A stretch of 63,771 nucleotides of DNA, counting the filler. It is 14 parts of 14 records of this genome, joined end to end, with 100 filler letters (N's around TTAATTAATTAA, not from the genome) between each part and the next. Parts side by side here need not be neighbours in the genome. Positions count along the whole stretch, not along the records: positions 46,952 to 51,971 come from SRR15195285_9388; 13 more parts are not named here. One strand, written 5' to 3'. Position numbers and translations under genes: made by a program. Positions within the stretch are counted from its first letter, which is position 1. The number at the start of each line of letters is the position of its first letter. Under the pieces are notes generated by a model, which saw nothing but the letters and a program-made list of their open reading frames with translations, made no database searches and was not told the origin of the DNA. Positions 12,842 to 58,683 of this stretch are shown in pieces.

Positions 12842-13652
12842 CCAAACTCGCGCCTAGCTGTACAATTCCAGCGAGCGAGCAGCCACCTTCGCTCGCAGGG
12901 AGCGGCGCCACTGGCTGTCCTACACCGTGATCGACACCCGCGCGCGCGCAGCAGCAGCTGGCGGCACACAGAGCAGATCTAGAGCACCAGCTCCGTCCCA
13001 CAGCGTGCTCTAATGCGTGCTGGCCGCATATTCTGTATGNNNNNNNNNNNNNNNNNNNNNNNNNNNNNNNNNNNNNNNNNNNNTTAATTAATTAANNNNN
13101 NNNNNNNNNNNNNNNNNNNNNNNNNNNNNNNNNNNNNNNATCCCTCAATTGATCCCGGATATACCGTACATGTATCAATGGTGAATAGCATTATAGCAAT
13201 GCGTGAGCCAACGTGGGTGCCATCAATCTCTGGCCTGATGTTCGATACTACTACCGTAGTAGTACTAGTATACGGTACTCGGAGTACCGCGGTAGTTCAC
13301 GCCTGCATGCAGTGCATGGTGCAAGCGCTGCGCCAAGCACGGTGTACTGCGAGTACCGTGATCCGTGTACACTGGGATACCGATACTGTACCCGTGTAGG
13401 TGTACGGTACTACTACTAGTATAATAGCGTATCCCGCGGTATGCGTCCTCGCGCGCGCGTCCGTCGCGCCGACCTCGCGGTCGTCACGGGCCAGAAGCCT
13501 GCTGAGAACTAAACGCCGCGCAGCTCCACACACGGCAACCACCATCGCAGCAGGCCACGTGGAGTGACGCGATCAGCTAGGTCGGTCGAGCGTCTGCTCT
13601 GCTCGCATATCCTCAGTATACTGTAGCCGCCAGTGACGCACCGGCCGGACAA

Positions 13653-16484: not shown

Positions 16485-16862
16485 TCCTACCAGAGACGCA
16501 GGCCGCGAGCACAGCGCCAACCTCCGTCAAGAGCAGCGACGCGGATCCGTCGCGTGGCGGCCGCGGCGCGCGAGCGGCCGACGACGGAGCGCCCGCCAGC
16601 CAGCACGTTTATAGTGCCAACAGCCAGCCGCTACAACGATATTGGCGCTGCATCAATGCCGACGCCTCGGGCTCGAGACGAACCGTAGCGCGGACGCCGT
16701 CCGCTCGTCGACGTCGCCGCGATCACTCGCCAGCAGTCTCTGCGTGCATGCACTGCGATCCCNNNNNNNNNNNNNNNNNNNNNNNNNNNNNNNNNNNNNN
16801 NNNNNNTTAATTAATTAANNNNNNNNNNNNNNNNNNNNNNNNNNNNNNNNNNNNNNNNNNNN

Positions 16863-18350
16863 TGCCTTCCCTGGCAGCGTGGTGTGGCAAAGCGCCTACC
16901 CTGTCATCACCTACAACACCTGGAAGGCCTACGGCGACATGCAGCTGATTAGCCGCCACTGGGATGGACTGGTGGCGCTGTCGGACTACTGGTCGCGGCA
17001 GCCTTGCGCGCAGGACCACCAGAACCTCTGCGGTGGACTGGGGGATTGGGTGGACACAAGTTGGCCGGCTCGAACCACCGATGCACAGGTGTGTGTGAAG
17101 GCCCACAGGTCGCCCTTGCTCGCCTTGTCTGCCTCACAACTTCTCCGTCCACAAGGGCCCCCCTCACTGTCTATTTGTTCAACACGCGGTGTCTGCTGCA
17201 CCAACACCACTATCGGTCGTGTTGTTGACCGTGTGGTTATTCCTTGCGCAGGCCACCTCGTCATTCTACAACAGCCTCTCGGTGGCATACATGTCCGAGA
17301 TTGCGACAGCACTCGGCAGGGATGACGAGGCTGCGAAGTACGCGGCCCAGTTCGACACTATGACCACCGCCTACTACAGCTCCTGCAAGTCCTGCACAGC
17401 CTGGGCCAGCTGCTGTGGCGCCAAGCTGGAGAACAGCTCGCAGACCGCCTCGATCATGGCTCTGGCCCTCAACCTCGCTGCACCACCACTCTCTAAAACA
17501 CGCGGCCCTATTCCGGCAGGCATGGTCGGGGCGGTGGTGGGCAGCCTGGTCGAGAGTATCGCCTTGGCTGGCAACCACACATCCTCCGGTATTGTAGGCT
17601 CTACGTTCGTGTTTGACGTGCTGGTGGCTTATGGGCGGGGCGCGGTGGCGATAGAGATGCTGCTCAAAGACGATCAGCCGAGCTTTGGCTACATGATTTC
17701 TCAGGGGGCAACGACCCTGTGGGAGAATTGGCAGGGACAGCTTCCAGGAGGCGCGGTCGGGTCCAACAACCACGTGAGCGCAAACCCACACCCGAGTCGT
17801 CTACGACAGCCACGACATCGTACTGCAGCGATGCAGCGAACTGTGTATCAGGCTGGTAGCTAATTGGCTGCGTCGTCACTACTGCGCCCAGATAATGTTC
17901 GGTGGCAATGTCGGCACGATCACGTACCACGCGTTCGCAGGGCTGGCCAATGCCGGTGTGGCGTGGCGGTCGATCCGGATGCGCCCTCTCCCAGCCGCGA
18001 TCGAGCGACTTGGCCAAGCTAATGCCTCCGTGCTGACACCAAACGGCCTGGCTGCCATCAGCTGGCGCTGGCTTGAAAAGCGCGCGCTCGTCCTGAACGC
18101 GACAGTGCCCTCGGGCTCGACAGCCAAGATCATCGTGCCCGTGACACTATTCGGCGCGAGCAAGATCTCGAGTGTCACAGAGTCTGCGACGGTCGTGTGG
18201 AGCCATGGAAAGTACGCCGCGCCACCTGCTGCGGCGGCCTTCATGGACTTCACTCACGAGGTCTCGCCGCACGAGGCCCTGGCCTTCGTTGTCGGCTCTG
18301 GCAGGTTCGTGTTCGCTGTGGCATATGATGGACCGAGTGCAGCCGTATAG
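16863..18350 (+). CDS. Alpha-L-rhamnosidase (GH78), C-terminal part, 5'-truncated; introns ~17089..17250 and ~17773..17891
   Basis: GLGDWV, SQTASIMALAL, PSFGYMISQGATTLWENW, SNNH|IMFGG, TPNGLAAISWRW...LNATVPSGSTAKIIVP. Confidence 0.88.
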
Positions 18351-19776: not shown

Positions 19777-19969
19777 TCTCTCGCCTGGCACGCGTGTCGG
19801 TAGCAGCGCAGCGCGATCGCGAGGGCGCGCGCGCGGCGCCGCACGAGCAGTCAATAACTGGGCGTAATTNNNNNNNNNNNNNNNNNNNNNNNNNNNNNNN
19901 NNNNNNNNNNNNNTTAATTAATTAANNNNNNNNNNNNNNNNNNNNNNNNNNNNNNNNNNNNNNNNNNNN

Positions 19970-22900
19970 CGTCCCGAACATGGTGAACGGTATTCAGACT
20001 CGCGTCTGTGGCACCTTCTTCGATACCTGTGGCCCACGGTGGCAAATTACTGACTCGCATCACCCAGACTGCAATATGTGGACTCTCACGGCGCATCCAG
20101 AAGGGTGGCTGGGTGCAACGGTCCGCATTGTGGCCGATGATGATGGACAGGTACAGATTGATGATTTTCGATGGCAAGAAGATGCGTTTGGCGTCGACAG
20201 TTTCCTCGGCTCTGCCGAGAACCCACTCAGCCTCGCCCAGCGCACTTTCGCTGAAAGTGGCGCAGCGGAGATCTGTCTTCATCCATCTGAATGTTACACC
20301 ATCACGGTGCAAGGGCCTGCGACGGCTAGGTGGACACTGCAAGATGCTGTTGGTGAGACTGTGGCGGAGGGTACTGGCCCGGACGTGCAGCAAGTGTGTC
20401 CATGTGGGCACAACGGCGCGCCACAATGTCTCACTTGCTCAGTGGTGGTTCCTAATGGGGGTACGCTGGGCAACTGTCCGACTGATGGTGAGCTAGCGCA
20501 TGGCGCGTCATGCACTGCACAATGTAGTGGCATCTCTGTGCTGCCAAGCACATGCTTGGACGGCGAGCTGTTCAGCCCTTCGAGTTGCTGCAGCTCCGGT
20601 GAATTCTGGGATAGTGGACAAAATGAGTGTCAAGCCTGCCCTTCAGGAAAGGTGGATTCGGACCGCGACCCATTGACACCGTGCGAGGCGTGTCCGCCAA
20701 GCACTTACAGCAGCACAGGGGCTGCGGAGTGTACCGTATGTACAGCAGGCCGGTCGGCAACTTTGCCAGGGATGCACGACTGCGTTTCTGGGTGGTTCGC
20801 AGCAGATGGTTCACAGCGGATTGAAGGGGTCGCTGATTCTCAGCCGAGCTTTCGAATCCCGGAGCTCTCATCAATAGATGCAGATGGTTATGAGGTGGGG
20901 CCATGTTATGCGTTTACTCTTAGTTACGAGCTGTACGAAGTCCGTGGAGTAACGGTTCCGTGTGGGAGCCTGAACATTACAAGCAGTCAGTTTCGGTCGT
21001 GTCTTCCTGTTGCTGTTGATATTGGTGGCATGGGAGATCACGATAAAGCAGATGTTGTCATCGAACACAGCACGTTCGAGCAGAATGAGAAGGCAATTTC
21101 GATAGCACTGGGATCAACACTTCGAGTCTTTGCTTCTCAATTCTCTTTCAACGGCAACTTTGATGATGCACTCAGGGTCACTCAGGGCGGTGCATTGCAC
21201 GTATTCGGCAGAGCATCGGTGACTATTGAGGCATGTCAGTTCAGCAACAATAAGGCAGCATCGGGTGGAGCCATATACATTGAAGGAGGTGGTTACTATG
21301 GCACAGCCTCTGTATCCATTCTCCACACGCAGTTCTTCAACAATGTTCAATCATGGTGGAATGATTTATCGGCAGGGGGGACGCACATCTGGGCGGCCAG
21401 TCGGCCCGAGAGGTTTTACCTTTACAACAGCAAGATGTTACCCTTCGATGATGGGGCTGTTGCGTTGAACGCACCGTCAGGGTGCGAGCAGTACCCGTGT
21501 GCGCAGGGAGAAGCGTGCTCTTATCGGCACTACTCGCTACTTTGCACTCCCTGTGCTACGGGAACCATCAGTAAGGACGGGTTAACGTGCACAGTGTGCC
21601 CTCCTGGCGAAGGCCCTAATCCAGAGCAGAATGATTGTGTGGAGTGCTTTGGCAACACCGTCTCCGCGTCTGGGTTTGAATGTGCAGAATGTGGCCAAGG
21701 GACAGTGGCGAACGACGATAATACCGCATGCATTGACTGTCCTCCTGGGACAGTGTCTGTCGGCAGGAACTGCGTTTGCGCAGATGGATTCTACAATAGC
21801 AGCCACGGCAAGAACATTCTCAAGTGCTTTTCTGATGGTGAGCCGTGGGTCTCACTGCCTCGTGACGGGTCCACAGACTGCATATCGTGTGCAGATTCTG
21901 GCTGTCCCTCGCAAGCGGTTGGCTGCACCGGGGGTGAAGCACGACTTCTCCCGGGATATGCGTTGAGTGAAACTGCAGCTGCACAAGCAGTCCCACTGAA
22001 TGATGTTGTTGGGCAACGAAACATCTTCGCCTGCGATACCGACGGATGTCTAGGCGAGCATAACGACAGCGCTCCAATTTGTAGTGCAGAGTACAGTGGT
22101 CCGCTCTGTGACTATTGCGCTGACGGGTACTCGCGCCCTGGCTTCGAAGGGGAGTGTACTAAGTGCGCAGACGGGACGAACAGCACCTGGCTAGTCATCG
22201 CTGGAGTTTTGGCAGTGCCGCTGTTAGTAGGCGCTCTGTGGGTGGTGTCGGCTGTTGACTCTGAAGCTGGAAAGGCTGCCGTCGTTGTCACGTGCGTAAA
22301 AATTGCTATCTCGCTGGTGCAGGTGCTCACGCAACTTGAGTTCGCGTTGGACTTAGTCTGGCCAGGGTCGTTTCGGTACGCGCTCACTTTCTTGCCATCT
22401 TTCTGCTCCGCGTGCTGGACTGCTGGAAGGACTGCGACAGTAGATAAGTACTGTGCTTGTGGTGCTGACAGGTGGTTTGTGAACCTCTTGAAGGCATTCA
22501 ACTTGGACCTGCTCGGATTTGTTGATGTTGGCTGTGTTTCCACGTTTACATTCACGAAGAAGTTCGTCTTTGCCGTGCTCCTCGCTCCTGTCTTGCTCAC
22601 AGCCGTGGGCATCGTGTTCCCGCTACGCAAGAACGTTGACGGAATTGTCAACCGATGTGTCAAGATGGCACTATCCATCTTGTTTCTGATCTACCCTTTC
22701 GTGTCGCAAACCGTCTTTCAGTGAGTGCAACCCTTTCTTCAGAGCGATGGATTGTGTTGTCGTGTTGAAGCCTGTCTAATGGACTTCACTCGGAATATGC
22801 ATGTTTGGGTCATAGGAGTTTTTCGTGCCGTCAGCTCGATGAAAATGAAGAATGGCTCGATGTCGACTTTCAAATCGACTGCAACAGTGACAGCTACAGC

Positions 22901-23782: not shown

Positions 23783-26068
23783 CTACAACAGGTCCCGTTT
23801 GACGAAAGCCATCAGAGTGTCTGGCCGCGCGTACGGTGCAAGACAGCTCCCATCGCACTGCTGCGGGTTGAGAAAGCACTTGTACTGACCCTTTTCAAGC
23901 TCGTGCAACACAACGCTGACACAGTACGACGTCGCACAGCAACGCTTGCGGCATGCCTCAACGTCTGCCTCTCCCAACCCGCTCGCTGGAAAGCTCGCCA
24001 CAGCGGGGCCACCACCACCGGTTTTGTTGCGGACCTCCCAGCCTGGACTCCCTGCCTGTCCAACACACGGTCCAAGCGGTACTGGAGGAGATGGCGGTGA
24101 AGGTGTGGCACTGACATTCCACGGGCCCAGAAAGTTGCCTCGGGCCGCAGCAGCAGCACAGCAACCGGCGTCATCAGCCGCTGGATTGAACTTCGGCGGG
24201 TGATATGAGGTTGTCAATTCCTCAAAGCGTGCAAGCATACTCTGGAGAACAGCTGGCTCTGCAACCGACATGTCATACCGTTCCGATTCGTCTGCTGTGA
24301 GGTTGAACAGACAGTGGTCGTCGCACGCACGGCCTCCGAACGCGTTGGAAGCTGTCCCGTTTGAGAAATTAGTCCACTCTCCACCATTGGGTCCTTTCAC
24401 AAGCTTCCACTCCCCCTTAATGATCGCGCCAACCGCGTAGTCAACACCGAAGTGGTTGCACCCGGTCCCTGCAGTAGAGAAGTTGGCTAAGCAGTGGTCC
24501 AGGACAATTTCGGTGCGTACTGGCTGAATATCAGGGCGGTTGCCTGTGATGAGATCCCATTGGTTGAGGCCATCATACGGGATGGTTGCCGAGACGCTGT
24601 CGGCGAGTGGAGTCCCATGTGCATCTACCTGAATGGCGGAGATAATCGTAGGCAGCCAGTCGGACACATGAATCAGCGTCGACAACTGCTGCCCACGTCG
24701 GCCTAGTGGCAGTGCCCCACCAGCAACTATAGCAGGCACTCTGCATCCACCTTCGAAGTTTGAATTTTTTCCTAATCAACAACGTACAGATCAGTCGAAC
24801 GGTGGATCCATCGGTAGAGCATATTTGGAAGGTTAGATATGCGCACCTCCTCTAAACGGGAAGTTCGATCCACCACCACCCAGTGGCGCCCCATTGTCGT
24901 GGGTGTAAATCAAGAGAGTATTCTGGTCCGACGACAATTGTCGCGCAGTGTAGTGGGTTGGAGTTGAGGAAAAACACAGTGAGAGAAGAGCAACAGACAG
25001 TGCACATTCAACGTCGAGCAACCGTAGAGCAACGCAAATCGCACCTGCCACGTCCCTGGTCGAGCCTTCAACGCGGCTGTCAGATTCCCTACTGCTTCGT
25101 CAACGACGGACACCATGCCATTGAAGACTTCCAGCTTCTTGTTGCCTGGGAATTTGTAGAGGTCTGAGTACTGCAAGGGTACCTCGAACGGCGCGTGAGT
25201 GTTTTGCAGCCAGTAATTCAGGAAGAACGGTTCCGGAGCTTCGTTGGCGACAGCTACCGCCTTGGCATTGTACATCCAGCCGGAGTAGGTGCCGTTGTCG
25301 CCGTGTGCAGGCCGCGCATCGGACGTCAAGTCGACCACGCTGCGACATTTGATCATGCTACCGAGCTCCTGAGTGAAGTGATCCTGCATCCCACCAAGGT
25401 ATCCGAAAAAGGTATCGAAGCCTCGGCCGGTCGGCATGTAAGACTCGTTGTGAAAGCCTAAACTGTGAACACACGAGGCATGACCGGCTGTGAGAATGTG
25501 TGACTCAGAGGCAAGCATCCAACATAATTCTACAGCGTGGGCTGGGGATGTCGAACGTACTGCCACTTGCCGACATGGTGAGTGGAGTAGCCCAGACGCC
25601 CGAGGCGGAGTGGAAGAGTGTCGAACCCAAGCTCCAGACCATCCGGTCGTGACCAGGGTATGAAGTTCGACCGGGTATTGCCCGTTCGGAACGGGTACCG
25701 GCCGCTGAGAAAAGAACCCCGTGTGGGACTGCAGAACTTGTACACGTAGTGCCGCGAGAGGTACAGACCTTCGTCGCGTAGTTCGTCCACACGTGGCCCC
25801 TTCACTAACGGGTTGTTCGACTGGATCCCTCCGTGACCAAGGTCATCCTGCGTGCAGGGCCAAGATAGGCATCGAACGGGCGAGGATGGTGAACAACTGT
25901 CTACAGCAGGTAGAATGACTTTTCGGTTCTGCACACCACGAGAATCATGACGATGTTGAACTTCTTGCTGCTTGCCGCAACTGCACTCAGCTCTCCCGTC
26001 ACCACTAGCAGCCCGAGAATCAGCAGCAGTGCCGATGGCAGTGGCCGCGTCAGCCTTCCGTGCTGCAT
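23783..26068 (-). CDS. Secreted S1 sulfatase (arylsulfatase B-like) with C-terminal PAN/apple module; several introns
   Basis: Signal peptide MQHGRL...ALLLILGLLVV, FNIVMILV|DDLG, formylglycine motif CSPTRGSFLSGRYP, GYSTHHVGKW, PTGRGFDTFFGY, DNG..GGSNFPFRG|KNSNFEGG, HVSDWLPT, CRKRCCATSYCVSV. Confidence 0.9.
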
Positions 26069-26883
26069 CCAGGATCGATATCCTCGCAGCGGCTAGCAGC
26101 TGTCCAGCGCAGCGCGCAGCGGCCAGCATCGCGCGCGTGCAGCTCATGCTGCAGCTGGCTAGCCAGCAGCTATGGCAACCACAATGTGATTCCTGGGTCG
26201 GCGNNNNNNNNNNNNNNNNNNNNNNNNNNNNNNNNNNNNNNNNNNNNTTAATTAATTAANNNNNNNNNNNNNNNNNNNNNNNNNNNNNNNNNNNNNNNNN
26301 NNNGAAGTCTCAGATTATGGGGAACGCACAGTAGTACCGAGTACTAGTACAATCCATTCAGTCGCTGACCGCGGGGTGACTGAAGATTTTCGAAGCACTC
26401 GATCACCGACGGTCAGCATTTTAGTACATTACGGAATTGGGATACTGTACTCGTAGCCGTCTGTAACCAAAACAGTGTGATTGTCCGACTGTCAGAATTG
26501 TCACCCGGTTTGGATTTTTGCCACATCACTGAAGGCGATTGAGTGAGGTCATCATCGGCACGTTCGTGATTCGACACATCCCGGTGCGTACGGTACTATG
26601 TTATACGTGTATTATATATACTGAACTGCAATGTATTGCCATTCTGGCGTTCGATTCGGCTGCCAGTGCCGGCGGCTCTTCGCATTCGCCCAGCCACGCG
26701 GGCGCGCCGGCGCGCGGCCGGCCGCCGCTAGCGCGGCCGCCGCACGCGACGCGATGCATTCTCACAAGCACATCGATCCGGCGGCATAACGCGAGTCGTG
26801 GGAGTCATCGCGCCACCAGACGCACTGACAGGCTGGACGTGGGCGTACATTGCGACTCTACGTGCTCGGCTGGAGGAGCTAGG

Positions 26884-29800
26884 ATGTCAACAGAGGGCGG
26901 CAGTGATTCTACTGTGAAGTTCCTTGTGCTAAAGTTCGGCGGCACTTCCGTCAGCACTGCAGAGAACTGGAAGCGCATCGCCGCGATCATCAAATCGCGC
27001 GTCGCCGCCGGAGGGGACAACCTCAAAATCGTGGTGGTCCATTCTGCGCTGAGCGGCGTGACAGACAAGTTACAACTCTGCCTTGAACAAGTCCTCGAGC
27101 GACGGCGGTCAAGTGACACTGGAAATGGCCCGCACGACGCACAGCAGCCGGCTGGAACACACAAGCGCACGCTGGCGGCCATCATGGCACAACACCTGGA
27201 GCTGTCCAAGGCCCTGGGCATGCCGGAAGCCGAAGCACAAGTCATGTTGGCTCCTTACCACCAGGAGCTGCAGCGCATACTTGAGGGCGCAAGCCTCATT
27301 GGAGAAGTCTCGAGTCGCACCAAGGCTCGTGTCGTCGCAATGGGCGAGCTGCTCTCCACGACGATCGGAGCGGCTGCACTCAGCACAATGCTGCCCGACG
27401 GTATGTCTTGTTGGCTTGAGGCGCGGGAACTTTTGCGATGTGCCAAGGTCTCAACGAGCGTACGACTGCCGGAGGAGCAAACGTACTTGAGTGCCGCTTG
27501 CGACTATGATCCTGATACCGAGCTGCAGATACGGCTTGCGACCGATTCGTCTAGGGTGTTTGTGACGCAAGGCTTCATCGCATCCAATCAAGATGGGGAC
27601 ACCGTGCTGCTCGGGCGTGGCGGCTCTGACACGTCTGCAGCCTACTTCGCAGCAAAGCTCGAGGCATCGTACCTGGAAATCTGGACAGACGTCCCCGGGA
27701 TGTTTACTGCCAACCCTCGGCTCATCCCGGAGGCCAAGCTGCTGTGCACTCTCTCATTCTCAGAAGCGCAGGAGCTCGCGTCGACTGGTGCAAAAATTCT
27801 TCATCCACGCTGTATCGGTCCAGCTGTGAGTGTTCTTCCTTGCACTTTCGTTCCATACAGGTATACCATAAACTGATCAATCGTGTGGATATGGTAATGC
27901 TCAACGTGTTCTGCGTCAGGCTAAACACAACATCCCCATCAAAATTTGCGACACGTTTCGGCCACATCTACAAGGTACTGTGATCACGGCAACCTCAAGA
28001 GATAGTGGCGTCGTCAAAGCAATCTCTGTGCGGCATGGAATAACAATTGTCAATCTGGAGTCACTTGGCATGTGGCAGCAGGCTGGTTTCCTGGCAGATG
28101 CTTTCCGTGCGTTCAAGGCTCAGTCTATCTCTGTTGACTTAGTCGCGACGTCCGAGTCGACAGTAACGGCCTCTATAGACCCGGAGACGATTACCGAGGT
28201 GTGTACATCCTCACGTGCACGCTCTTGCACATCAAGAGAACATTGCAGACATATACCACGAGCGTGCGAGCAAACGCAGCGATGAAATTGTTGAATGCTT
28301 ACTCTGACTTGAAGGTTGCCTACACCATATTTGCAGGGTGCTTTAGACCGCGTCTCTAGCGACCTTGCCGACATGTGCTCAGTGAGCTTCACACACAACT
28401 GTGCATCGATATCTTTGGTTGGGCAGCAGATTCGAGCCACACTCCCATCTCTGGCCCCTGCTCTCTTGGCTTTCCGACGACACAAGGTCCACATGCTGAC
28501 ACAAGCCGCAAATGACCTAAACCTCACATTTGTGGTGGATAATGCGGTGGCTGACGATATTGCTATCGAGTTGCACCATAACTTGATCGAGCAACCGCCA
28601 GCAGAGGTTACGACCATGTGTACTTACGGAATGACTTGGAGTAATCTCAGCTCACCGAACTCATCCCCGCCCAACACCCCAAGGCAAAGCAGCTCCGAGG
28701 ACGTTCACACCGGAGACGTTGAGGATCAAGCGACACAAGATCCTTCTGCTTCTGCAGACACTGTAATGCGTGTAGGGTTTGTAGGGTGGAGAGGAATGGT
28801 TGGCAGCGTTCTACTGGAACGGATGGCAGAAGAGGGCGACTTTGACGGCACCTTCGAGCCGGTGTTCTTCACCACATCTCAGGTGGGCCAGCCAGGTCCA
28901 GTGGTTGGCACAGGTGGGCGGCACAAATCGTGCCCGTTGGTCGACGCAACTGACCTGGAAGCGTTGTCCGGCTGTGCAACGATCGTCAGCTGCCAGGGAG
29001 GCAGCTACACGGAATCCGTTCATCCAAAGTTACGCTCTACTGGCTGGAACGGCTACTGGATTGATGCTGCCTCGACATTGCGAACCCACGACAATGCCGT
29101 AATCGTGCTGGATCCGGTGAACGGACGCGTGATCGACGATGCGCTGGCAGGGGGAAAGATTCGCGATTTTGTTGGTGGAAATTGCACAGTCTCTCTGATG
29201 CTAATGGCACTGGGAGGCCTATTTGAGGCTGGCATCGTCGAGTGGGTCTCATCCATGACGTACCAATCCGCATCTGGAGCTGGAGCAAGACACATGAAGG
29301 AGCTACTGGAGCAAATGCGCCACCTCGGCAAGTTTGTCGATACTGCTGAGGAGCAGAACTGGTCAGCCCTTGAGCTAGAGCATGCTGTGCATGCCTGCAT
29401 GCGTACTACAGGGGAGGATGGAGACAGTGCTGGCGAGATCCCTTTCCCTGCCACAAATTTTGGGGCGCCGCTTGCGTGTTCGCTGCTCCCGTTCATCGAT
29501 AAACCGATGGAAGATGGGACGGGGCGATCCAAGGAAGAGTGGAAGGGAATGTTCGAGACAAACAAGATTCTCGGCCGAGGCTTAGCAGGAGCAGACGGTG
29601 ATGCTTCACAGCCGCAAATCCCAGTGGATGGTGCATGTGTCCGAGTTGGCGCGCTCCGTTGCCACTCCCAAGTAAGAATGCCCTACCCCCTTCGCCCGGC
29701 GACCCAGCCTCCCCCAGCGTCACCATATGGATGCAAGTGTCACCATACACATGCAATCGAATTCTGGTGACTTTTCTTTGAAAGCATATCAAGTACAGCA

Positions 29801-30502: not shown

Positions 30503-32550
30503 CTAGCGACCGTGTGCGACCCTGGTGTTTGCGCCAGTCGCGAACACCTCAACCAGCACCGCATCGTGCGGCTGCAGTGTCGACTCCAAAGCTAGTGTAC
30601 TAGAAGAAATGGGGTTAGCGTCCCGCCAAAGTGCCCGAGACTCAGCTGGAGGACCTTTCAGCCCGAGAGCTGACCATGGGGCTTTGACTACCGTCGCAGA
30701 GTCTCCTAGATTGAACATCGCCACGATCCTCGCATCTGCACGTTTCGAGCTTTGTGCAGCCCACACCACGCTCTCATTGGTGGATACTGATGCTAATAGG
30801 TGGTTGCGGCAGGTAGTCTCTTGTACTTCTAGTGCAGCTTGATCAGAGAGTAGTTCGAGCGTGCTGGCGTTTGAGCGAGTCGGATCGCCCCCCCAGATCA
30901 ACGGAGCCCTTGATATGATCCACATTGTCATCATCGCCCGTTGTTCTTGCACAGTAAGAGTTGAATATCGTGGACCAGTGCCAACGTGTGCAATCCATCC
31001 CATCGGCAACATGTCCTACGCAGCAGCGCCCACATATTTTCAGGGCAATTGCGTTTGGCCGAAGGGAGCCCCGAATTGCAATTCTACTATTCAAAAAAGC
31101 GCCGATGACAACGGGAACAGACACGGTGGGCTCAGATGGATCCCATTGTCCAGTCTGAACTTGGGGCAGCAGACACGTCGCACCAGGTCCGGGGAGAAGA
31201 GCCGCGTACTGTACTGCTCAAGCTCAGCTGCATACGCAAAGTGAGCCTTCAGCTGACCCCACACGTCCCAAAAATCACCAGTCAGCCTTGCCATGATTGG
31301 TTGGCCCAGGCTGCTGGCCATGTCCCGGGCCGCCGCTGCCAGTGTTGCATTCGGTTGTGATGAGCCGGGAGAAAGTGAGATCACTATCGGACGATGCCGC
31401 TTCTGCAACGCTTCGATTAGTCGTCTTACGAAGGTCTCTCCTCGGAACCAATCCTGCATTGAGCGGTGCACCCAGTTAGATGAGGACGGTCCATGCGTTT
31501 CAAAACTGGTTCGATTGGTCATGCCAGAACTTCTGTTTGGTCCATTGGCAGATCGCACCTGACCGAAAACGCAGTCAACTTTCAAAAAGTCAAGCTTCCA
31601 CTCGGTTGCATACAGATCGGCCAGAGAATCGATATACTCCTGTGCGCCTGGGTGGCTCATATTTATCCCGTGTACCTGCCACAAACAAGTCCACCAGAAA
31701 CTATAAGGGGCTATTTGCTGCATAGGGTAGGCACATGCATAGTCGACAGTGAGCCTACGAGCCAAGGGTTCCACGGGCAGTCCATTGAGCCGGTTGCTTT
31801 CCCTTTGTGTGGTGGCTGGCTCGGATCATCCCCAACGATGGCAATGTCCGCAGCCGTGAAGTTTGAGCCCTTGATTTTGCTCTTGGCTTCCACAGCCATT
31901 CGTGGCACACCACCCATGATCCAGATCCCAAACTTCAGGCCGTGCGCGTGAATCTTTGCGCCCAAAGGCGCAAACCCAACGCCGCCGGCACTCGATGGAA
32001 ATTGCGTGACATTTGGCGTGAGACGACCGAAGTCGTCGATGGTCTGCGTGCCGTACCTTAGTGCAAACCACAACCAGTTCAAACAGCACACTACCACCAC
32101 CACCCCGATTCCCCAACAAATACACTACGCAGAAATCGCATCGACAATTACTGCTGTGTTTGGTCTGCTGCTACTGCTGGGATGCACATACTTGTTGTCT
32201 TCACCGAACCATCCACTGTCCAGAGTGAATGTGTCGTAACCGCGAGGCAGCAGCGTGGAGGCCAGCTGGGCGGCGTCGCGCAGCGCAACAGCTTCTGTTG
32301 AGGCCTCCGTGCTTCCGTCGGGACCGGTCCACGGAGGCGACGAGTCATAGCTGTTCCATCCACGTGGGGGTGCACGGAGCTCTGACGGTGTGCACAGCGT
32401 GCCGAAGCCTGTGGGTTGCGCCGCGCCGGCTGACGCTGTCAGCAGCTGATTTCCGCGCATTAAGCCCGCCAGCAGCAGTAGAGACATGGGACTGTTGCGC
32501 CGCAGATGCCTTGCCCGGTACAATGCCGGTGTGGTGCCACTAGCAGCCAT
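30503..32550 (-). CDS. Alpha-galactosidase (GH27), secreted, multi-exon (start at 32550 or 32487)
   Basis: PPRGWNSYDS, FTLDSGW, DDFGRLTPN..FPSS, IHAHGLKFGIWIM, DFLKVDC, IVISLSPG, RLTGDFWD, PDL|DMLPMG, MTMWIISRAPLIWGGD, VAMFNL. Confidence 0.88.
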
Positions 32551-33295: not shown

Positions 33296-33395
33296 NNNNN
33301 NNNNNNNNNNNNNNNNNNNNNNNNNNNNNNNNNNNNNNNTTAATTAATTAANNNNNNNNNNNNNNNNNNNNNNNNNNNNNNNNNNNNNNNNNNNN

Positions 33396-39507: not shown

Positions 39508-39933
39508 AATTATCGATAGGCGCTCAGCTCACTACGGTTCAGTCGGGTGGAACGGGCGGCGCACGCCCGGGCCAGTCTATGTATACCACCAGAACGGCTG
39601 AGCGCAGCACGTACGTGACGGAGCGTATAGTGGGTACGATGGTACGTAAGGAAACGCGTACTGGGTCACACTGCTGCGTGGGTGTCGCGCGACGCGTCCC
39701 CGTCGTCGCGAATAACGCGCCTCGCGCGAGCGCGCGCGCGCCCCGGGCGTCGCGCCCACTAGCGGTAAAATAAGGATTTTCGAGTCAAACTCGNNNNNNN
39801 NNNNNNNNNNNNNNNNNNNNNNNNNNNNNNNNNNNNNTTAATTAATTAANNNNNNNNNNNNNNNNNNNNNNNNNNNNNNNNNNNNNNNNNNNNCGCCTGG
39901 TTTGCTGGGTTACGTGGGGGCCGTAACGGCGGG

Positions 39934-42448: not shown

Positions 42449-43159
42449 GTGTCGGAAACACGCCAATGGGTTGGCGCCGGCATGTACGCATGCACATACC
42501 AGTATGTGCATTATCTTCTACTTGCATCGGCTAGAGCCGACGCACTGTAGAGCCACGCATTGCACAACACAAAAACCAAAATTGATGTCGGTAGACTTCT
42601 CGTTTTTGACTTTCTCTCGCTCCGCATTTGAGGGGCGCACTCGCGCAACGTCAGCACTGCCGTAGTGCTTTGCGAGCTTGCTCTCCGAGACGAACGTGCT
42701 GCCTCCGGGTTGCGACCTACCGGGCGCATACAACATTTTTGTCATGAAAAGTGAGTCAGTTTACGGTGAAACATGGTTACTATCTCGGCCTACACAAGAG
42801 AGTGTGAACGAGTGTGACAACTTGTTTAGTGTATGTTTGATAGAGCTAACTAGGTGTCCCTATCTATTTCAAGTCTTGACAGACTCATGCTGAAATCGAA
42901 AAAATCGCGNNNNNNNNNNNNNNNNNNNNNNNNNNNNNNNNNNNNNNNNNNNNTTAATTAATTAANNNNNNNNNNNNNNNNNNNNNNNNNNNNNNNNNNN
43001 NNNNNNNNNCTTCTGAGTTGTTTTAGGTCGTGGTTAGCCTTGCAAGTACATCTACTAGCTACCAGGTAGTATGCGAATAGATCTACATATCGAGTACGTT
43101 AGCGTATAGGTTAGATCTATGATAGAGACGACGGACGATGTATCGTGGCGCGCCCACAG

Positions 43160-46851: not shown

Positions 46852-46951
46852 NNNNNNNNNNNNNNNNNNNNNNNNNNNNNNNNNNNNNNNNNNNNTTAAT
46901 TAATTAANNNNNNNNNNNNNNNNNNNNNNNNNNNNNNNNNNNNNNNNNNNN

Positions 46952-46993
46952 CACCACCACCAGCACCACCACCAGCAGCACCAGCACCAGCAG
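46952..46993. repeat. CAC/CAG trinucleotide repeat at the contig start
   Basis: caccaccaccagcaccaccaccagcagcaccagcaccagcagc. Confidence 0.85.
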
Positions 46994-47929
46994 CGTAGCA
47001 ATGAGCAAGGCCAATTTCAGAATTTCAGAAATTCGAGCAATGATCCGCACTTGCCACTTCGTACACTTCGCTCTGCACACTGCAGGCGCCGGAGGGTATT
47101 GCTCGTGACCTGGGTGGCGGCGGTACTATTGCTCATGAGGGTATATAAATATCCTATAGTAGATACATTGTTCGTCGACGTGCCGCAACGGGCCAATGGC
47201 AACGACGAGTCGACGACGTGGCAAGCGACACACGACAATCTGCATCGCCCTCACAGTCTGAGGGCGGGCCCACAACGCATCTAGGTACGCAGATCGATGC
47301 GAATGCAGACAGTCAGGTCACAACGATTGACACGAGTCAATCACGTGATGATGGTGACGCTAGCGACGTAGTTAGACCAGCGTTAGATTTTAACACTGTA
47401 TTTAGATCACTCTAGGCTAGCTATAACTAATAGGCACGGTCTGTGCTAAACGGGAAACCTAGCCGTAGATAGAGTTGCGTGTACGCATGTAATTAAAGCT
47501 CTCCTTCTCTCTCACACTTAGGAAGCGCACGGGGTGAGCACTAAAGTACTGAACTTTGATCGGAAGGAGCGCCGTGTGCTATGGCGTTTGCAATTGAGGC
47601 TCTGCCAGTAGCTGCTGGGATTCGGAAGGTAGGGTTCACCCGCGGCCATTTCTGTGCTCAGTACGCCGACGGATCTGGTGCATGAGAACATGCTCTGCGT
47701 GAACGGCAACTACTAATGAAAATCCGACTTTACTCAGAAACGAGGATCCCAAAGGGGACCGTAATCTTGTGCGAGGTCCCTGCTTAGTTGGAGCCAGCCA
47801 ATTGTGGAGCATCTTCGCGATACATCCAAATGCCTTAGTCTGGCGAGGTGGTGCAGCTGCGCCCTCGTCACCTCAAGTCAGCCCGTCTCGCTCGCCACTC
47901 CAGCCTGAGGTGCGCGTCTGCAACGCCAA

Positions 47930-50900
47930 CTACGCATATGGACACCCGCAGTCTGGCAGCACTTGCGGGAATGTTCCTGGTTTGCATACATTTCGAGAAG
48001 CAGGAGCAGGATAGCCGAAACTTTGTACGTTTGTGATCGTCACGTTGTACGTCATGTTCTGTCCGTCCATGCCAATTTTGCACGGCTGGCAGGATGGTTG
48101 GAAGAACTCCCACTTGTGGGTCACCGCGGATTGGACATGACACTTGCGAGTTGCCGTGTTGGCCTTGAAGTATGAGTAGACCCCGTTGATAGTAGACTCG
48201 TTGGAAAAGTATCCAGGCGGCATGCCTGCAGTGCCCTTCTTTGCACTCGCGAAGCCTGCGCCAATATCAGCGGTAGTCTCGCAGCCATAGCCATACAAAT
48301 CACGAAGGTGAAAAGCACCATTCTTCTGTGTGTGTGGCCCACTCATGAATGCTGCTTTCCCATCACGGCAGGTGATGTTGCGACCTGTGATGTTGCCCAC
48401 AAAGCGACCAGCGCCCTTTGCACCCGTCTCTGCCCTGAGAGTGACGCCCCCACTGCCGTCAAGATTCTCGAAGTCGATGTAATTGCCAGTCTGCATTTGC
48501 AGCAAACCGTACCCTGGCCAACCTCCGCTGGATGTTATGTTGGAGATCGTGCCATGCGAAGGGCCGCATGTGTGGTCTACAGCGCCAGAATCAAGACACA
48601 GCGCTGACAAGGTGCCTGCACACGGCAGCTTTTCGGCGCTGGTGATATTGTTGGCCAGCAAGACATTGACGTTAGATATGTGGAATAAATTGATGCAGCC
48701 GACCTGAATGCCCCGCACACGCCACGGACACCTAAGAGGCTTTGAGACGTCCATCAAGACGGGCTGTCCAGCTGGGGCAACGATTGAGATGTTGGTGGCA
48801 GAGGTTGCCAACTCTGGATCCCCATCGACGGCAATCAGCCCTGAACGAACAGCAGGCGCGGGAAACAGCACCACGTCTGCGGCGAACTTCCACACCACGT
48901 GTGATGTCGACAACACAACGTCGGCAATCATATAGCGCCCGGCAGGGATGCGGACACAGCCACCTGCTGCACCCAGCTTGTGCTGACAAGTCGCAAATGC
49001 AGTGCTGTCATCATGGTCGCCGTCCCCGTCTGCGCCGCAGTCTGCCTGCAAGTCCAGGCACGCATCCGAGCCACCACCGACGTGTACTAGAGTTGAAGCA
49101 CTATCAGCTGGTGGGATCCAGCTTAGAGAGTATAGACCGATGGCTAGCGAGCCAGGGCCATTCTTCTTGGAGCTGCGAAGCAGATGACAGCACATTAGCG
49201 AAAACAAGAACCGATACTACTTGGCACTATTCACTAGGAAGGAAGTGCGTCTCTCATAACCGTAGTATTCGAACATTCGTACTCACGTTGAGTGCCGAGC
49301 GATGAAATATCGCACAGTCGCAGCGTCACCTGGGACTCCCTCGTAGACGGGGGTAGGCTCTGCAAGAGCATCGCGTGAATCAATCGGCCAGTTAATCACG
49401 AACTGATTGTTGATACGGGATGATATCTTGCAGCTACCGAGTCACACACTCACCACCAGGTGCCGGTCCGTCGTCAGACTTGTTCTGCCAGTTAAGCGCA
49501 CCTGCGTAGGTCCAATTCAAGGCGTGTGGGTCGGTCTTAAGGTCGATGACGAAGTGAGGTGCAGGTCCTTGGGGCATCCCTGGCTTGCCGAATACCTTGC
49601 CGTGAAAGGCACACCAGATGTGCAGCTCGTCGACTCCCAGTGGACCGCGGAAGAACTCGCAATTTTCGTAGCCGTCCGGGTCCCATCCGGGCTGTGGTGG
49701 GAATAGTGGGTTGTTTGGTGCCTCACTGTAGGGTGGTGTCCACGAAGTAGGACTGTGTGGGAGGTAGAGACCTTCAGTGGCCGTGTTGAAGCTCGACACG
49801 CCCTTCGTCCAGTAGCCCTTTTGCCCACCCACGACCATTGCCCTGCCGGAGTCGAGTCGTCGTGCGTTCCAGCCGCCCGTCCAATTGGAAGCTGGGTCAC
49901 TCGTTGGGGTGGCAACAGCAGGAAATAGCCTCTGCCAGGGGCCGTCCGGCGACTTGGCAGAGGCAACAGCCTGAGCGCAAGTTTGCATGCTGCTTTGATT
50001 CGCACCGGAGGCGGAGTAAAACAGGTACCAAAGCTTTTCTTCGTCGCTGTAGATCGCTGAGGAAGAGAAGGTTCCACTATAGTCCCAGGCCTTTGGATCA
50101 CTTGAATGAGGGAGCGCAAGGCCATGTGATTCCCATGGCCCCAGGATCTCGGGCGCACTGTAGTGGTAGAGGTAGGCATCCCAGCCGGGCTTCGTCGAGC
50201 CATTCATGTGGTCCACCCAGAAATGCCAACGCTTGGTGACGGGGTCTTGGACCGCCGCACTCGGGTCGCGCAAGTTGCCGTGAGGATCGAACGCTATGGT
50301 TTTGACAAAGTTGAGCGTAGGGACCCAGTACTTGGAGGGTGGGGGTGGTACGGGGGCAGGACCCGCGGGCACCATGCCGGACGTGCAGTTGGGCCGCCCG
50401 CCTAAGTATTTACCGGCTTTGGCGCTCTTGAGCCAGCACATCTTCTGACCCTGGTATGCTCCCCCCGGTTGGTACATCGTGAACACAAAATGACCACAGC
50501 GTGGGTTGGCGCAGCAGGCTGCCGCGCAGTCGCTTGCAGTCGTGCCAATCATCTCACCTACATCTTTGCCGTTCTCAAAATTCTTTCCGTGGAGGTAAGT
50601 CGTACCTTGCAGGCACGTGCTTGGGGACGGCGAGGGTGGCGACAGGGCGGAAAGCGTCGCCATCTCCGCAGACGTGAGCTCGAACGAGAACACATCTAGG
50701 TCCTCTGTGATGTACTCCGGCTTGTGGGCGGCTGTCACTGCGCTGATGTTTTGCTGGATCAGCCAGCGAAAGGCCACCTGCGCAGCAGAGACCTTGTGCA
50801 CCTTGCCGATGGCGATCACCTCGGGAATATCTAGCACGCTGCTGTTGCTCCAGAGGCCTTGTAAGGGGCTGTACGCACTGTACGCAATCCCATGAGACTG

Positions 50901-51578
50901 GCAGAACTGCACTGTGGCGTCGTCCCCGCCGCCGCGAGTGTTATTCGTGTTGGCGACGGCGTGGTCACACTGGTTTACGGCTGGCACGATCTTAACTCGT
51001 GGGTCCGCTAGCATCGCTTCCAACAACGCTGAGTCAAAATTCGAGACGCCGATGGCCTTGGTAAGTCCTGCTGCCAGGCCAGCCTCAAGCTGCAGCCAGC
51101 GCAAGATGGTGAGCTCGGTGCCGTCAGCAGTCTCAGTGGACCGGCACGGCTCGTGCATAAGTGTCAGGTCCGTCCACGGCAGCTGCAGCAGGGCGTTGTT
51201 GCGTTCCATGCAGTCCTGCGCGTGAGCGCAGGCCATCTCCGGCTTCCTGCTGGTGGCAGCGCACGGCAGCTTCGTTGTGACGAAGATATCTGCGCGTGGG
51301 ATCTCCGGGTGGTCCTTGATCGCGGCCGCAATCTGCTCGTTGATCTGGTCCGTGTATCCGAGCGCCGTGTCCAGGCCCCGACCACCCTGGCGCAGAAACT
51401 CGGAGTAGTTGCTGTAGTGATTGCCCGCGCGCACGGCCTGTGAGGTGCCTCCGCAATTGATGTACGGCATCTGCGCGCCCGTATTGAGGCGGATGGTCGT
51501 CTTGTCCGCGCGGGAGGCGGTGGCATCTCCTGCGCCTGCCATCGCCACTACCACCAGTACGCGCAGGCTGTTCACCAT
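47930..51578 (-). CDS. Secreted polyprotein, 1146 aa: signal peptide - aldo-keto reductase - PAN/apple - GH117/GH43-like beta-propeller - GH82 iota-carrageenase-like beta-helix; introns 49360..49453 and 49173..49286
   Basis: Exons 51578..49454, 49359..49287 and 49172..47930 sum to 3441 nt in one frame; both donors are GTGAGT and both acceptors GCAG. AKR tetrad LDTALGY / TTKL / LMHEP and AIGVSNF; CAAACCANPRC...CWLK; RDPSA, AWDYSGTFSS, WYLFYSA; GYGLLQ, GGVTLRAETG, CRDGKAAFMSGPHTQKNG. Confidence 0.82.
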
Positions 51579-51617
51579 ACGGTTGGATCGGTCGCGTCAG
51601 GAACAAGAACTTTTCGG

Positions 51618-51657
51618 AATGTCGCAGCGTATAGCGGAAATGTCGCAGCGTATAGCG
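51618..51657. repeat. 19-bp direct repeat (period 21) upstream of the polyprotein start codon
   Basis: AATGTCGCAGCGTATAGCG at 51618..51636 and 51639..51657. Confidence 0.88.
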
Positions 51658-52071
51658 AGCGAAGCGCGCCCACGGCGCCACAATGTACGTATGAGGTGCA
51701 CCACCTCGCGCTGAGCGCGCGCGCCGCAGGCGGCGCTACATGCATACTATGAATAGTATGTACAGTACTATAAGCGCGCGCGCCAGCTTGCATGTCCACG
51801 AGTGCTATTATATACTATCGAATATTTGAATTGTATACAGAGGTGAGGCTCGGGTGCAGACCTGCACGCTGCAGACCCGGAAAGGCCTACTGTAGGGGAA
51901 AGCGGCGCCGGCGGAGTACGTATTCGAATAGTCAGTACGCAAATTCAGTAATAATTCACCAGCTGGCACGGNNNNNNNNNNNNNNNNNNNNNNNNNNNNN
52001 NNNNNNNNNNNNNNNTTAATTAATTAANNNNNNNNNNNNNNNNNNNNNNNNNNNNNNNNNNNNNNNNNNNN

Positions 52072-56635: not shown

Positions 56636-57263
56636 TAATGTTAAGCAGACGTCATCACACTGTGCGCGAGGTCAAGGCTCCTGCTAGCACCCACATGCCT
56701 TGCAGTACCTGCGCTGCTCGGGTTCAAAAGAGCACCTTGGGCAGCGTTCAACATAGCACAGCGCTCTAATACAACAGATTAGACTGAACAGTGCAGTGCT
56801 CAACGACCGGCGCCGCNNNNNNNNNNNNNNNNNNNNNNNNNNNNNNNNNNNNNNNNNNNNTTAATTAATTAANNNNNNNNNNNNNNNNNNNNNNNNNNNN
56901 NNNNNNNNNNNNNNNNGTAGAAACGCGAACGTATGGCGGTTGGGCCAGTGTGAGTAGTACTCCAGTAGATCTAGGATCCTACCGATCATCGTAATGTATC
57001 CACGGTCGATTGTCGATACTCTGCGAGTATTGGGTTTGGGATTCGGAGCGCAGCCGGCGACTGCGTATGCACCGCGTGCGGAGCGCTGGGGACTCCAGGA
57101 TTATTTAGATCTAACGCTGAATCGTGCATGATCGAGGGCAGCGCAGCGTTCGTTAAAAATTCGGCCTGCTGACCACAGTGCAGCGGCGACGAGGTCAGCT
57201 GCAGTCTTGGGCCGGGCGTGCGGTAGGGGCCTACACCGCGTGCAGTGTGTTCGCGCGCACTCG

Positions 57264-58683
57264 ATGGCAGCAGGCCCGCTCGCGCCGCTGGTGGCTCTGC
57301 TGCTGCTGGGTCTCCTCGGCACTCCCATAGTTTACGCTGCGAGGATCATCGTCTCCGGCGAGCGGTGGAGCGACACTGCGGGCGCACCCATCGAAGCGCA
57401 CGGCGGCTCGATCTGGCAGGATGCGACAACGAAGCTCTACCACTGGGTCGGTGAAACGCGCAAGGGTACGCCTCCGCAGCGGAACGAGGGCGTTGGCCTA
57501 TACTCTTCGCCCGACCTCGTGTCCTGGACAAACCACGGCAACGTGCTGCCAATGGCCGAGATCCAAGCCGTCACGAGCAAGGACTCAGCGTGGCGAGCAG
57601 TTGGTGGCGTGGCAATCATCGAGCGCCCAAAGCTCGCATACAACGCGCCCACACAGAAGTGGGTGCTTTATACCCACCTCGCCGATAAGACGTACGAAAA
57701 GTATGCAGCGCTGGGAGTCGCTACGGCCGATACAGTGACCGGTCCGTACACGTTCCTCCACACGCTCGAGCCATTTGGCGGTACCGAGCACGACCTTGGC
57801 ATGTTCCGCGACACCAATGGCACTGTTTTCCTACTATGTGGCACCCACCTGCCTGGTGTGGACGTCGGTATTGCGGCAATGTCCGAGGACTACACAACGA
57901 TTTCAACCCAGAAGCCAGTCTCCGCCCTCGCTGGCAGCCTGGAGGCGCCAGCGATGGCGCGTGGCCCAGACGGCGCGCTCTACTTCGCGCTCTCGCTGAA
58001 GACTGGCTACCGCAATAACGCGGGGGCACAGTACACCTCCACCAATGGATTACCCGGCCCGTGGACTCACAACGGCGCCATCTCACAGACATCGAACTCA
58101 ACGTTTGAATCACAGTCGACGTATATGCTCGAGCTGACTGCCGCCGACGGCAGCTCCAAGTGGATGTACATGGGCGATCGATGGCTCAACCCCAGCATCG
58201 CTCATGCCGCGTACGTGTGGGCCCCTGCACTGATGACGAAGACTCACATGCTGGACATCCAGTTTCATGAATCCTGGGACCTCGACAAGTACCTGAACTC
58301 TGATTTCTACGAGACGCTATCAGCAGTTGTGCAGCCAGCAGCAGCCACCCAACGGCGGCAGCTGCGAACCTGCCCCCAGCGCATTCCAAAGCCTGTTTAA
58401 CTTGGAGTGTGGCAATGCCCGGAAAGCCAGCAAGGGCGACTGTTTGCAGTGCCTCAGTAGTCAGGCGAGCTTTTCTGGGTACACTCGTGATTGTGCCTCT
58501 ACATTCGACGCCTGGTGTACGGGCACTCCACCGCCACCGCCGCCACCAGAAGTTTGCGATTGTGGGTATTACCGGGACGGTACTGGGTGTTCTCAAAGCG
58601 GTGGAGGGTGTGGTTGCATGGGCACGGGCTACTGTAATGTTGGTGGTCACTGCAAAAAGGTCGGGACATGCCCTGGTCATTGA
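57264..58683 (+). CDS. Secreted GH43_24-type exo-beta-1,3-galactanase-like enzyme with a Cys-rich C-terminal module; probable 46-nt intron 58289..58334
   Basis: WSDTAGAPIEAHGG, YHWVGE, YSSPDLVSW, IIERPKLAYN..TQKWVLY, GPY, DLGMFRD, LEAPAM, TFESQST, MYMGDRW. Confidence 0.85.

Follow-up and report, generated by a model that had tools for sequence, protein, structure and literature searches.

The GH82-like gene and its transcript

The window analysed here, 63,771 nucleotides long with filler included, is made of 14 contigs of 3.0–7.0 kb, and one of these carries on its minus strand a gene whose product is a homologue of the iota-carrageenases of glycoside hydrolase family 82 (GH82). On translation, positions 47930–49216 form a single open frame, in which the first Met gives the coding sequence listed in Table 1. 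All the motifs that a preliminary description of this stretch had quoted (GTISNI, GYGLLQMQTGNYIDFENLDGSGGVTLRAETG, NITCRDGKAAFMSGPHTQKNG and GCETTADIGAGF) are found in this frame exactly as given, and the range it proposed, 47933–49060, corresponds to residues ~46–421. The product, hereafter the window protein, is identical to P0158, a database protein from a eukaryote collection, and differs by one residue from P0160, for which reason a single-exon gene model was accepted.

The preliminary description had also called the gene intron-containing, and this part of it was not borne out. No intron was seen, either in the uninterrupted frame, identical to that of P0158, or in the RNA contigs, which are colinear with it. 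These contigs (150–360 nt), from four seawater RNA runs of which one is an oligo-dT library and one a poly-A library, match the coding sequence and 152 nt of the 3′ untranslated region at 99–100%. They cover 47781–48490 and 48523–48903 without a joint, while 48904–49195 and the intergenic region are uncovered. We read the GH82-like gene as a genuine, transcribed nuclear gene. Introns are present elsewhere in the bin, for example in the genes split between frames at 3875–4911 and 17099–18350.

The N-terminus of the window protein is poorly defined in the structure model described below, with a predicted local distance difference test score (pLDDT) under 50 at residues 1–29 and 31–35. A hydrophobic N-terminal segment occurs in eight of the 10 members compared from the eukaryote-type clade to which the protein belongs (itself among the 10); in those eight the maximum 11-residue hydropathy is at least 2.0, and in the window protein it is 1.64. 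From these sequences we infer that the protein may be secreted. A spliced 5′ exon giving a stronger signal peptide was considered, for which GT...AG sites at ~49285 and ~49175 were available; a splice between these two leads into a stop, and the annotated start was kept.

Table 1. Positions of the GH82-like gene, of its parts and of other features in the window
Feature	Position	Strand	Remark
Contig of the GH82-like gene	46952–51971		5,020 bp, two genes; N spacers on both sides
Coding sequence of the GH82-like protein	47933–49195	−	421 codons, single exon; stop at 47930–47932
N-terminal ~33 residues	49097–49195	−	weakly resembles a signal peptide (MCCHLLRSSKKNGPGSLAIGLYSLSWIPPADSAS); modelled as disordered
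Right-handed beta-helix core, residues ~44–315	48251–49066	−	homologous to the iota-carrageenase catalytic domain
G228-Y229-G230-L-L-Q233	48497–48514	−	equivalents of the strictly conserved Gly-Tyr-Gly and Gln222 of the Alteromonas enzyme
G249-G-V-T-L-R254-A-E256-T-G258	48422–48451	−	E256 at 48428–48430, G258 at 48422–48424
G286-P-H288-T-Q-K-N-G293	48317–48340	−	H288 (48332–48334), equivalent of His281
C-terminal ~106 residues	47933–48250	−	last helix turns and cysteine-rich loops; ~55-residue lid insertion absent right after G314
3′ untranslated region	47781–47932	−	RNA contig of poly-A library run X12 covers 47781–47992, 1 difference
Neighbouring gene	49434–51575	−	signal peptide, aldo/keto reductase, PAN domain and weakly GH43-like C-terminal domain (Pfam)
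Glycan-active genes of the bin	17099–18350; 30503–31015; 24910–25842; 57132–58400; 19970–22724	+; −; −; +; +	
Spacers 1–7	5170–5269, 8362–8461, 13040–13139, 16763–16862, 19870–19969, 26204–26303, 33296–33395		
Spacers 8–13	39794–39893, 42910–43009, 46852–46951, 51972–52071, 56817–56916, 60321–60420		

Fold, active site and lid

A phmmer search with the window protein against 177,635 PDB sequences retrieved the iota-carrageenase (1h80_A/3lmw_A) with an E value of 2e-13, and a profile built from the window protein and four relatives reached E 2.4e-32 over profile positions 23–305 and chain positions 19–289, the next match standing at E 0.003. The Alteromonas motifs given in the preliminary description (GYGLIQ, ILFRNLHSEGGIALRMETD, IRCSKGLAAVMFGPHFMKNG and CGSAVRSDSGF) were right, as they stand opposite those of the window protein in the alignment from the phmmer search. 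A first structure model, made from 5 sequences, was discarded (pLDDT 59.7); the AlphaFold model used was made from a 141-sequence alignment and had a pLDDT of 85.3 and a predicted template modelling (TM) score of 0.86. With Foldseek, the five best chains were all iota-carrageenase (E 5.9e-16, TM 0.70), followed by another fold at E 4.4e-07 and TM 0.37. Superposition on the Alteromonas structure with VIA-align, a check that the preliminary description had proposed, gave Z 40.8 and a root mean square deviation of 2.9 over 358 aligned residues (model 34–415, chain 36–476), at 23–24% identity, versus Z 27.9 for the next entry, rhamnogalacturonase A. By all four methods iota-carrageenase came first, and the window protein is a GH82-like beta-helix homologous to iota-carrageenase, as had been proposed.

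None of the other beta-helix families that had been named as possible better matches (GH28, GH55 and GH87) came ahead, GH82 being at the top by a wide margin. For GH28 (Pfam PF00295) there was no match at E≤10, and GH28 chains of the PDB appear by fold alone, with Z no higher than 27.9. The Pfam scan gave no family above threshold, only a weak PF12708 match to the N-terminal cap, which at E 5.8e-4 falls short of the cut-off for that family, and the NCBIfam scan gave nothing relevant. The nearest Protein Atlas clusters are bacterial 'pectate-lyase-like' groups, which add nothing beyond the HMMER results.

In the alignment, where the enzyme's own numbering equals the chain index plus 27, E256 is the equivalent of the proton donor Glu245, Q233 of Gln222, H288 of His281, and R254 of Arg243, the sulfate-contacting Arg of subsite +1; G228-Y229-G230 is the strictly conserved Gly-Tyr-Gly, whose Tyr contacts sulfate at subsite −1. 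The position of the general base, Asp247, is occupied by G258. The roles are those described in a 2026 review, in which Glu245 is the proton donor, Asp247 the general base, and Gln222 and His281 stabilise the substrate and the water network (PMC13514251), and in a further paper in which Gly-Tyr-Gly and the Arg are strictly conserved and said to contact sulfates at subsites −1/+1 (PMC3669377). Of the four catalytic residues the window protein therefore keeps three, having lost the base, and it retains each of the three binding residues. The alignment bears out the earlier statement that Glu, Gln and His are kept and that ETD becomes ETG; the role of the Asp of this motif as general base had gone unmentioned. 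Q233, R254, E256, H288 and Gly-Tyr-Gly are each at least 90% conserved over the 141 sequences, and Q233 and H288 are invariant in the eukaryote-type, bacterial E-x-G and canonical groups.

In an exhaustive profile search 563 cluster representatives scored E≤0.001 and 137 reached E≤1e-30; the best 150 of the 563 were listed. The set of 207 rows combines the listed hits of at least 300 residues with the eukaryote-type members and the named bacterial loci, a sample that leans towards relatives of the query. In it, the base position is G in 162 rows, D in 26, H in 6, R in 3, S in 2, K in 1, P in 1 and a gap in 6, while the acid position is Glu in 203. By group, Gly stands at the base position in 13 of 14 eukaryote-type members and in 91% of 43 bacterial E-x-G sequences, versus Asp in all 11 canonical rows, and the tree requires at least five changes between D and G. 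Judged from these rows, E-x-G is the rule of the family and not a lesion.

A second difference from the canonical enzymes concerns the lid. Between G314 and G328 the window protein has 14 residues, the eukaryote-type clade as a whole 0–15 and the bacterial E-x-G forms 9–15, versus 63–78 in the 11 rows of the canonical E-T-D clade (Zobellia, Cellulophaga, Wenyingzhuangia and others). This insertion, in our reading the lid (domain A) of the processive enzyme, is present in every canonical row and in no other, and the lid-less E-x-G form makes up the majority of the family. A lid that closes the cleft into a tunnel characterises the canonical enzymes, which are processive, and is not a family-wide trait. 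Except for four Actinomycetota loci of still lower similarity, in which no catalytic motif is matched, the canonical rows are also the least similar to the window protein.

These features bear on two explanations of what the protein does. One is that it has lost its activity along with the general base and serves as a non-catalytic beta-helix binding or structural protein, for which G258 and the failure to find an alternative conserved acid would speak. Such a protein would not be expected to keep E256, Q233, H288, R254 and Y229 at 90% or more over 141 sequences, nor a Glu in 203 of 207 rows that include bacterial genes lying among sulfatases and glycosidases, and we consider this explanation quite improbable. 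The other is that the protein is a true iota-carrageenase, with which the protist would degrade the carrageenan of red algae or of their detritus; the preliminary description had likewise taken the gene to imply eukaryotic carrageenan degradation. Indeed, the Tyr and Arg that contact sulfate at subsites −1/+1 have both been kept, every characterised GH82 enzyme is reported to act on iota-carrageenan (PMC12549532), a lid-less GH82 is described as active on iota- and kappa-carrageenan (PMC13514251), and an E-x-G form may be among the three iota-carrageenases described for Z. galactanivorans (PMC5698469), given an E-S-G paralogue in Zobellia uliginosa. Nevertheless, with Gly in place of Asp247, no lid insertion, 23–24% identity to the enzyme, a separate and distant canonical clade in which all rows are E-T-D and carry the lid, and a planktonic filter feeder with no obvious access to red-algal walls as the host, that implication does not follow, and a true iota-carrageenase is very improbable.

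Zobellia uliginosa (G001) carries three paralogues: an E-S-G form of 424 residues, an E-T-D form of 491 residues with the lid insertion and an E-S-D form of 476 residues (L065, L071, L076). This trio may mirror the three GH82 iota-carrageenase genes reported for Z. galactanivorans in the paper just cited. Another member of the family, P0016 (663 residues, on a 26-kb contig), consists of two tandem GH82-like modules, both E-T-G, with a lysine-rich linker between them, and falls outside the eukaryote-type clade.

Host, eukaryote-type clade and probable transfer

The 14 contigs of the window are joined by 13 spacers, each consisting of 44 N, TTAATTAATTAA and 44 N in the N-run table, so that gene neighbourhood across a spacer means nothing. 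The contig of the GH82-like gene was placed by its own content. In tetranucleotide profile it correlates with the remainder of the window at 0.897, inside the range of the 14 contigs (0.761–0.947), and for the 62 named bacterial loci described below the correlation to the window is 0.676 at best, with a median of −0.24. The GC content at third codon positions is 0.594 in the GH82-like gene and 0.56–0.71 in six other genes of the window.

The other gene of this contig forms a single frame of 713 residues, to which P0333 is 100% identical. Its product is 78% identical over 405 residues to a protein of Diaphanoeca grandis and 80% over 381 residues to one of Helgoeca nana, both loricate choanoflagellates, and because of these identities the host is placed among or near the acanthoecid choanoflagellates. 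It is a marine heterotrophic protist and seems to be a loricate choanoflagellate. In the C-terminal domain of this second protein the GH43/GH32-like Pfam signal is weak (GH43 E 0.003), and a PDB sequence search with that domain gave no match. The reductase-PAN protein of Helgoeca and Diaphanoeca stops at 417–419 residues, versus the 713-residue fusion in the window, and a separate Helgoeca protein of 489 residues matches the PAN and C-terminal part at 57%. A GGTGAGT lies 20 nt ahead of the stop. Either the fusion differs between relatives, or the frame in the window misses a stop or an intron.

If the contig were bacterial contamination or had been mis-binned, no eukaryotic gene would be present at all. 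The shortness of the contig (5 kb) and a family that is overwhelmingly bacterial, with 62 of 62 loci coming from genome_contigs, a collection of bacterial and archaeal genomes only, would fit such an explanation. It is contradicted by a best bacterial identity of no more than 32%, by the PAN-containing second gene at 78–80% identity to choanoflagellate proteins, by the composition (0.897 versus at most 0.676 for the bacterial loci), by the matching contigs in oligo-dT and poly-A RNA libraries and by a clade that stands apart from bacteria at 100/99 support, and we regard it as extremely improbable and close to refuted. That the gene belongs to a eukaryotic protist, as first proposed, has thus held up on composition, on the choanoflagellate-like neighbouring gene and on the RNA contigs.

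The closest relatives of the window protein are marine sequences at 89% and 80% identity. A homologue from the choanoflagellate Acanthoeca spectabilis follows at 39% (E 7e-71), and clade members are also found in the transcriptome of the phagotrophic euglenid Ploeotia vitrea and among proteins labelled Picozoa from single-cell co-assemblies. In a quick IQ-TREE analysis of 81 rows, the 14 eukaryote-type rows form one group (support 98), and in a FastTree analysis of 207 rows, 21 eukaryote-type rows group with two further rows (97). A careful IQ-TREE analysis of 51 rows, which left out fragments under 300 residues, separated 16 eukaryote-type rows and one long-branch row from 34 bacterial rows at 100/99; the split is present in 100% of 200 bootstrap trees, with a bootstrap correlation of 0.986, which is not fully settled. 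With midpoint rooting, in a tree with long branches and no fixed root, the neighbour of the clade is an E-T-D group that includes Actinomycetota. The cysteines C46, C53, C70 and C80 stand in all 14 clade members compared and in none of the bacterial rows.

Lateral transfer had been suggested in the preliminary description, and one part of that suggestion stands. Since the family is overwhelmingly bacterial and the eukaryote-type rows form one deep, patchy clade, a single old transfer from a bacterium to a eukaryote would be the most economical explanation. A simple and recent transfer does not fit, because the clade is deep and occurs in several protists, has cysteines of its own and shares no more than 32% identity with any bacterial locus found. 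After capture, the gene would have diversified in several protist lineages; it might have passed on by vertical descent, been lost, or spread among phagotrophs. A scan of IMG/VR for viral copies as a transfer vehicle gave none, and two metagenome scans for longer contigs of the clade (with alignment A1, then with P0196) gave pattern matches and no confirmed relative.

The label Picozoa deserves caution. Five EukProt proteins of 'Picozoa sp. COSAG02/06' (P0009, P0189, P0201, P0357 and P0362) cluster closely with relatives of the window's genes, at 90% with a relative of YchF; where a relative of the neighbouring gene is concerned, the level is 63%. The neighbouring gene itself reaches 78–80% with cultured choanoflagellates. 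YchF had been tried as a taxonomic marker, with matches that were bacterial or without a name, and was useful later through one cluster label: one Picozoa assembly has a YchF that shares a 90% cluster with another sequence, and this other sequence has 90% identity to the YchF of the window. Owing to this clustering the Picozoa labels are uncertain, and the single-cell co-assemblies may contain choanoflagellate DNA.

Other contigs of the window carry VPS13-like, DNA polymerase theta, FYVE kinase and GH43 genes, which mark the bin as eukaryotic and are not physically linked to the GH82-like gene. One contig has an amino-acid kinase domain (26533–27876, plus strand) together with a semialdehyde dehydrogenase of the N-acetyl-gamma-glutamyl-phosphate reductase type (28313–29770, plus strand), and these could be one fused gene, with an intron, for two steps of the arginine pathway, a gene known from fungi.

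Proposed function and known systems

The reading that we favour, with fair confidence, is that of a transcribed, intron-less gene, from a protist among or near the choanoflagellates, for an E-x-G, lid-less GH82 homologue, likely a hydrolase of sulfated polysaccharides, obtained by an old bacterial transfer. The product would be a right-handed beta-helix glycosidase of ~40 kDa, probably secreted or located in the food vacuole, with an open cleft and no lid, in which E256, Q233, H288, Y229 and R254 are kept and the Asp base is lost; water might be activated by another group or by a water chain. It would most likely hydrolyse a sulfated polysaccharide in endo fashion, and a sulfated galactan-like polymer is the most plausible substrate, one that the cell would ingest along with prey, detritus or colloids. 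As one catalytic residue and the lid domain are missing, the protein probably cuts a sulfated polysaccharide rather than carrageenan itself.

Named bacterial loci with the GGVTLRLET motif number 62, are 24–32% identical to the window protein and belong to Flammeovirga, Echinicola, Formosa, Cellulophaga, Zobellia, Aquimarina, Novipirellula, Opitutales, Latescibacterota, Pontiellaceae and others, hosts that are marine polysaccharide degraders. Of 10 E-x-G genes taken from these loci, eight have at least one sulfatase within 6 kb and four have a GH2 gene nearby; GH95, GH88 or a sialate-type esterase were among the other neighbours, and a lambda-carrageenase of GH150 lay beside the gene in two of the 10, in Novipirellula and Flammeovirga. 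In these two cases (L002:2217–5075 and L020:2823–5615, the latter from Flammeovirga pacifica) a full-length lambda-carrageenase (PF25290/PF25292/PF25291, with E values as low as 6e-191) lies immediately upstream of the E-x-G gene. This adjacency hints that the E-x-G branch may work on highly sulfated, non-anhydro galactans. Because all of the catalytic constellation but the base is conserved, also where bacterial genes lie among sulfatases, the branch would be catalytic and handle sulfated glycans; for the window protein we infer both catalytic competence and substrate class from its residues and those of its relatives. In a more general form, the lid-less E-x-G proteins would be a distinct enzyme group that acts without an Asp base on sulfated substrates other than iota-carrageenan, one lineage of which was captured long ago by phagotrophic protists; we put this forward tentatively, as possible but doubtful.

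Glycan genes are dense in the 64-kb bin, which holds a GH78 alpha-L-rhamnosidase divided between two frames, a GH27 alpha-galactosidase represented by its C-terminal domain, a fragment of a sulfatase and also a 932-residue beta-helix protein with a PMP-type repeat. The GH43 protein of the bin is close to exo-beta-1,3-galactanases (PDB 6euf, E 1.4e-39; 7bys, E 2.9e-31). A digestive role in a particle feeder suits the GH78, GH27, sulfatase and GH43 genes, beside whose products the enzyme might work. The main alternative to digestion is that the enzyme acts on the sulfated extracellular matrix of the protist itself (cell coat, lorica-associated material or glycosaminoglycan-like polymers) and thereby regulates morphology or life stage. 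Choanoflagellates are described as responding to enzymes that cut sulfated glycosaminoglycans and as carrying transferred chondroitin lyase genes (PMC7971027), and the clade has long been kept in eukaryotes with a disulfide pattern of its own. The abundance of other catabolic glycosidases in the bin is not what such a role would predict, and the presence of the clade in a euglenid transcriptome makes phagotrophy, not matrix biology, the shared trait; a matrix role is, for these reasons, unlikely.

Several points weigh against the digestive hydrolase that we favour and against its assignment to a eukaryote. The window protein lacks the general base that the characterised enzymes have, and the only acids conserved in both the eukaryote-type and the bacterial E-x-G groups are D52, D149 and E256, so that catalytic competence is assumed. 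No member of the E-x-G branch was found tied to a measured activity in the literature, and an active lid-less GH82 is mentioned in one review alone, which gives no residue details (PMC13514251). The window protein's own signal peptide is weak (hydropathy 1.64, as above). The contig is just 5 kb, and since the VPS13-like and polymerase theta markers lie on different contigs, what ties it to the bin is its composition together with a single neighbouring gene. The RNA contigs, taken from Logan, indicate presence in RNA libraries and colinearity rather than expression level or strand, and DNA carry-over is possible. Finally, eukaryote attribution applies to five of the 16 clade rows of the final tree (four EukProt names and the window), and the 'Picozoa' labels may reflect cross-contamination.

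The fold and the family are established, whereas neither the eukaryote-type clade nor the form without base and lid is described in the literature searched. Searches on GH82 together with eukaryotes, protists, algal gene transfer and choanoflagellates returned no description of such a clade, although the supplementary lists of choanoflagellate transfer studies may contain the gene, and surveys of fungal genomes merely name GH82. GH82 is presented as a small bacterial family whose action is limited to iota-carrageenan (PMC12549532), and a clade found in choanoflagellates and at least one euglenid transcriptome, with RNA in seawater, widens this picture. Most GH82 relatives lack the published general base and lid, and labelling all of them as iota-carrageenases is probably wrong. 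If the enzyme is active, heterotrophic flagellates, and not bacteria alone, would help to break down sulfated marine polysaccharides, and the gene would be a further case, beside those described in PMC7971027, of the acquisition of a glycan-cutting enzyme by the sister group of animals.

Among known systems, the closest characterised structure is CgiA of Alteromonas fortis (GH82; PDB 1H80, 1KTW and 3LMW), with which the window protein has in common the right-handed beta-helix and the aligned proton donor Glu, Gln, His, Gly-Tyr-Gly and Arg. The reaction that defines GH82 is the hydrolysis of beta-1,4 linkages in iota-carrageenan, with inversion. The two differ in that CgiA has Asp247 where the window protein has Gly and in that the latter lacks the lid, has four extra invariant cysteines and comes from a eukaryotic host, at an overall identity of 23–24%. 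The GH28 polygalacturonases and rhamnogalacturonase A (PDB 1RMG) are also inverting beta-helix glycosidases and give the next-best structure match, but at a Z 13 units below that of GH82 and without sequence similarity in the catalytic turns. The GH28 catalytic triad consists of Asp residues and is different from the residues of the window protein.

Nearer in form are the bacterial E-x-G proteins, for example those of Flammeovirga pacifica (three loci), Echinicola pacifica (WP_018473888.1, 'GH28-related'), Novipirellula, Latescibacterota and Opitutales. They share with the window protein the motif GGVTLR-x-E-T/S-G, the absence of a lid and similarity over query residues 48–413, but are only 24–32% identical to it, lie on the other side of the tree, lack the clade-specific cysteines and are encoded in sulfatase/GH2/GH150 clusters, which the eukaryote does not have. 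The genome paper of Flammeovirga pacifica counts five 'GH82' genes and remarks on their dissimilarity (PMC5385347). Finally, Cg82Mf, described in a review as a random endo-acting GH82 carrageenase with no lid over its catalytic groove (PMC13514251), would resemble the window protein in being lid-less and differs from it in being bacterial and in its reported activity on iota- and kappa-carrageenan.

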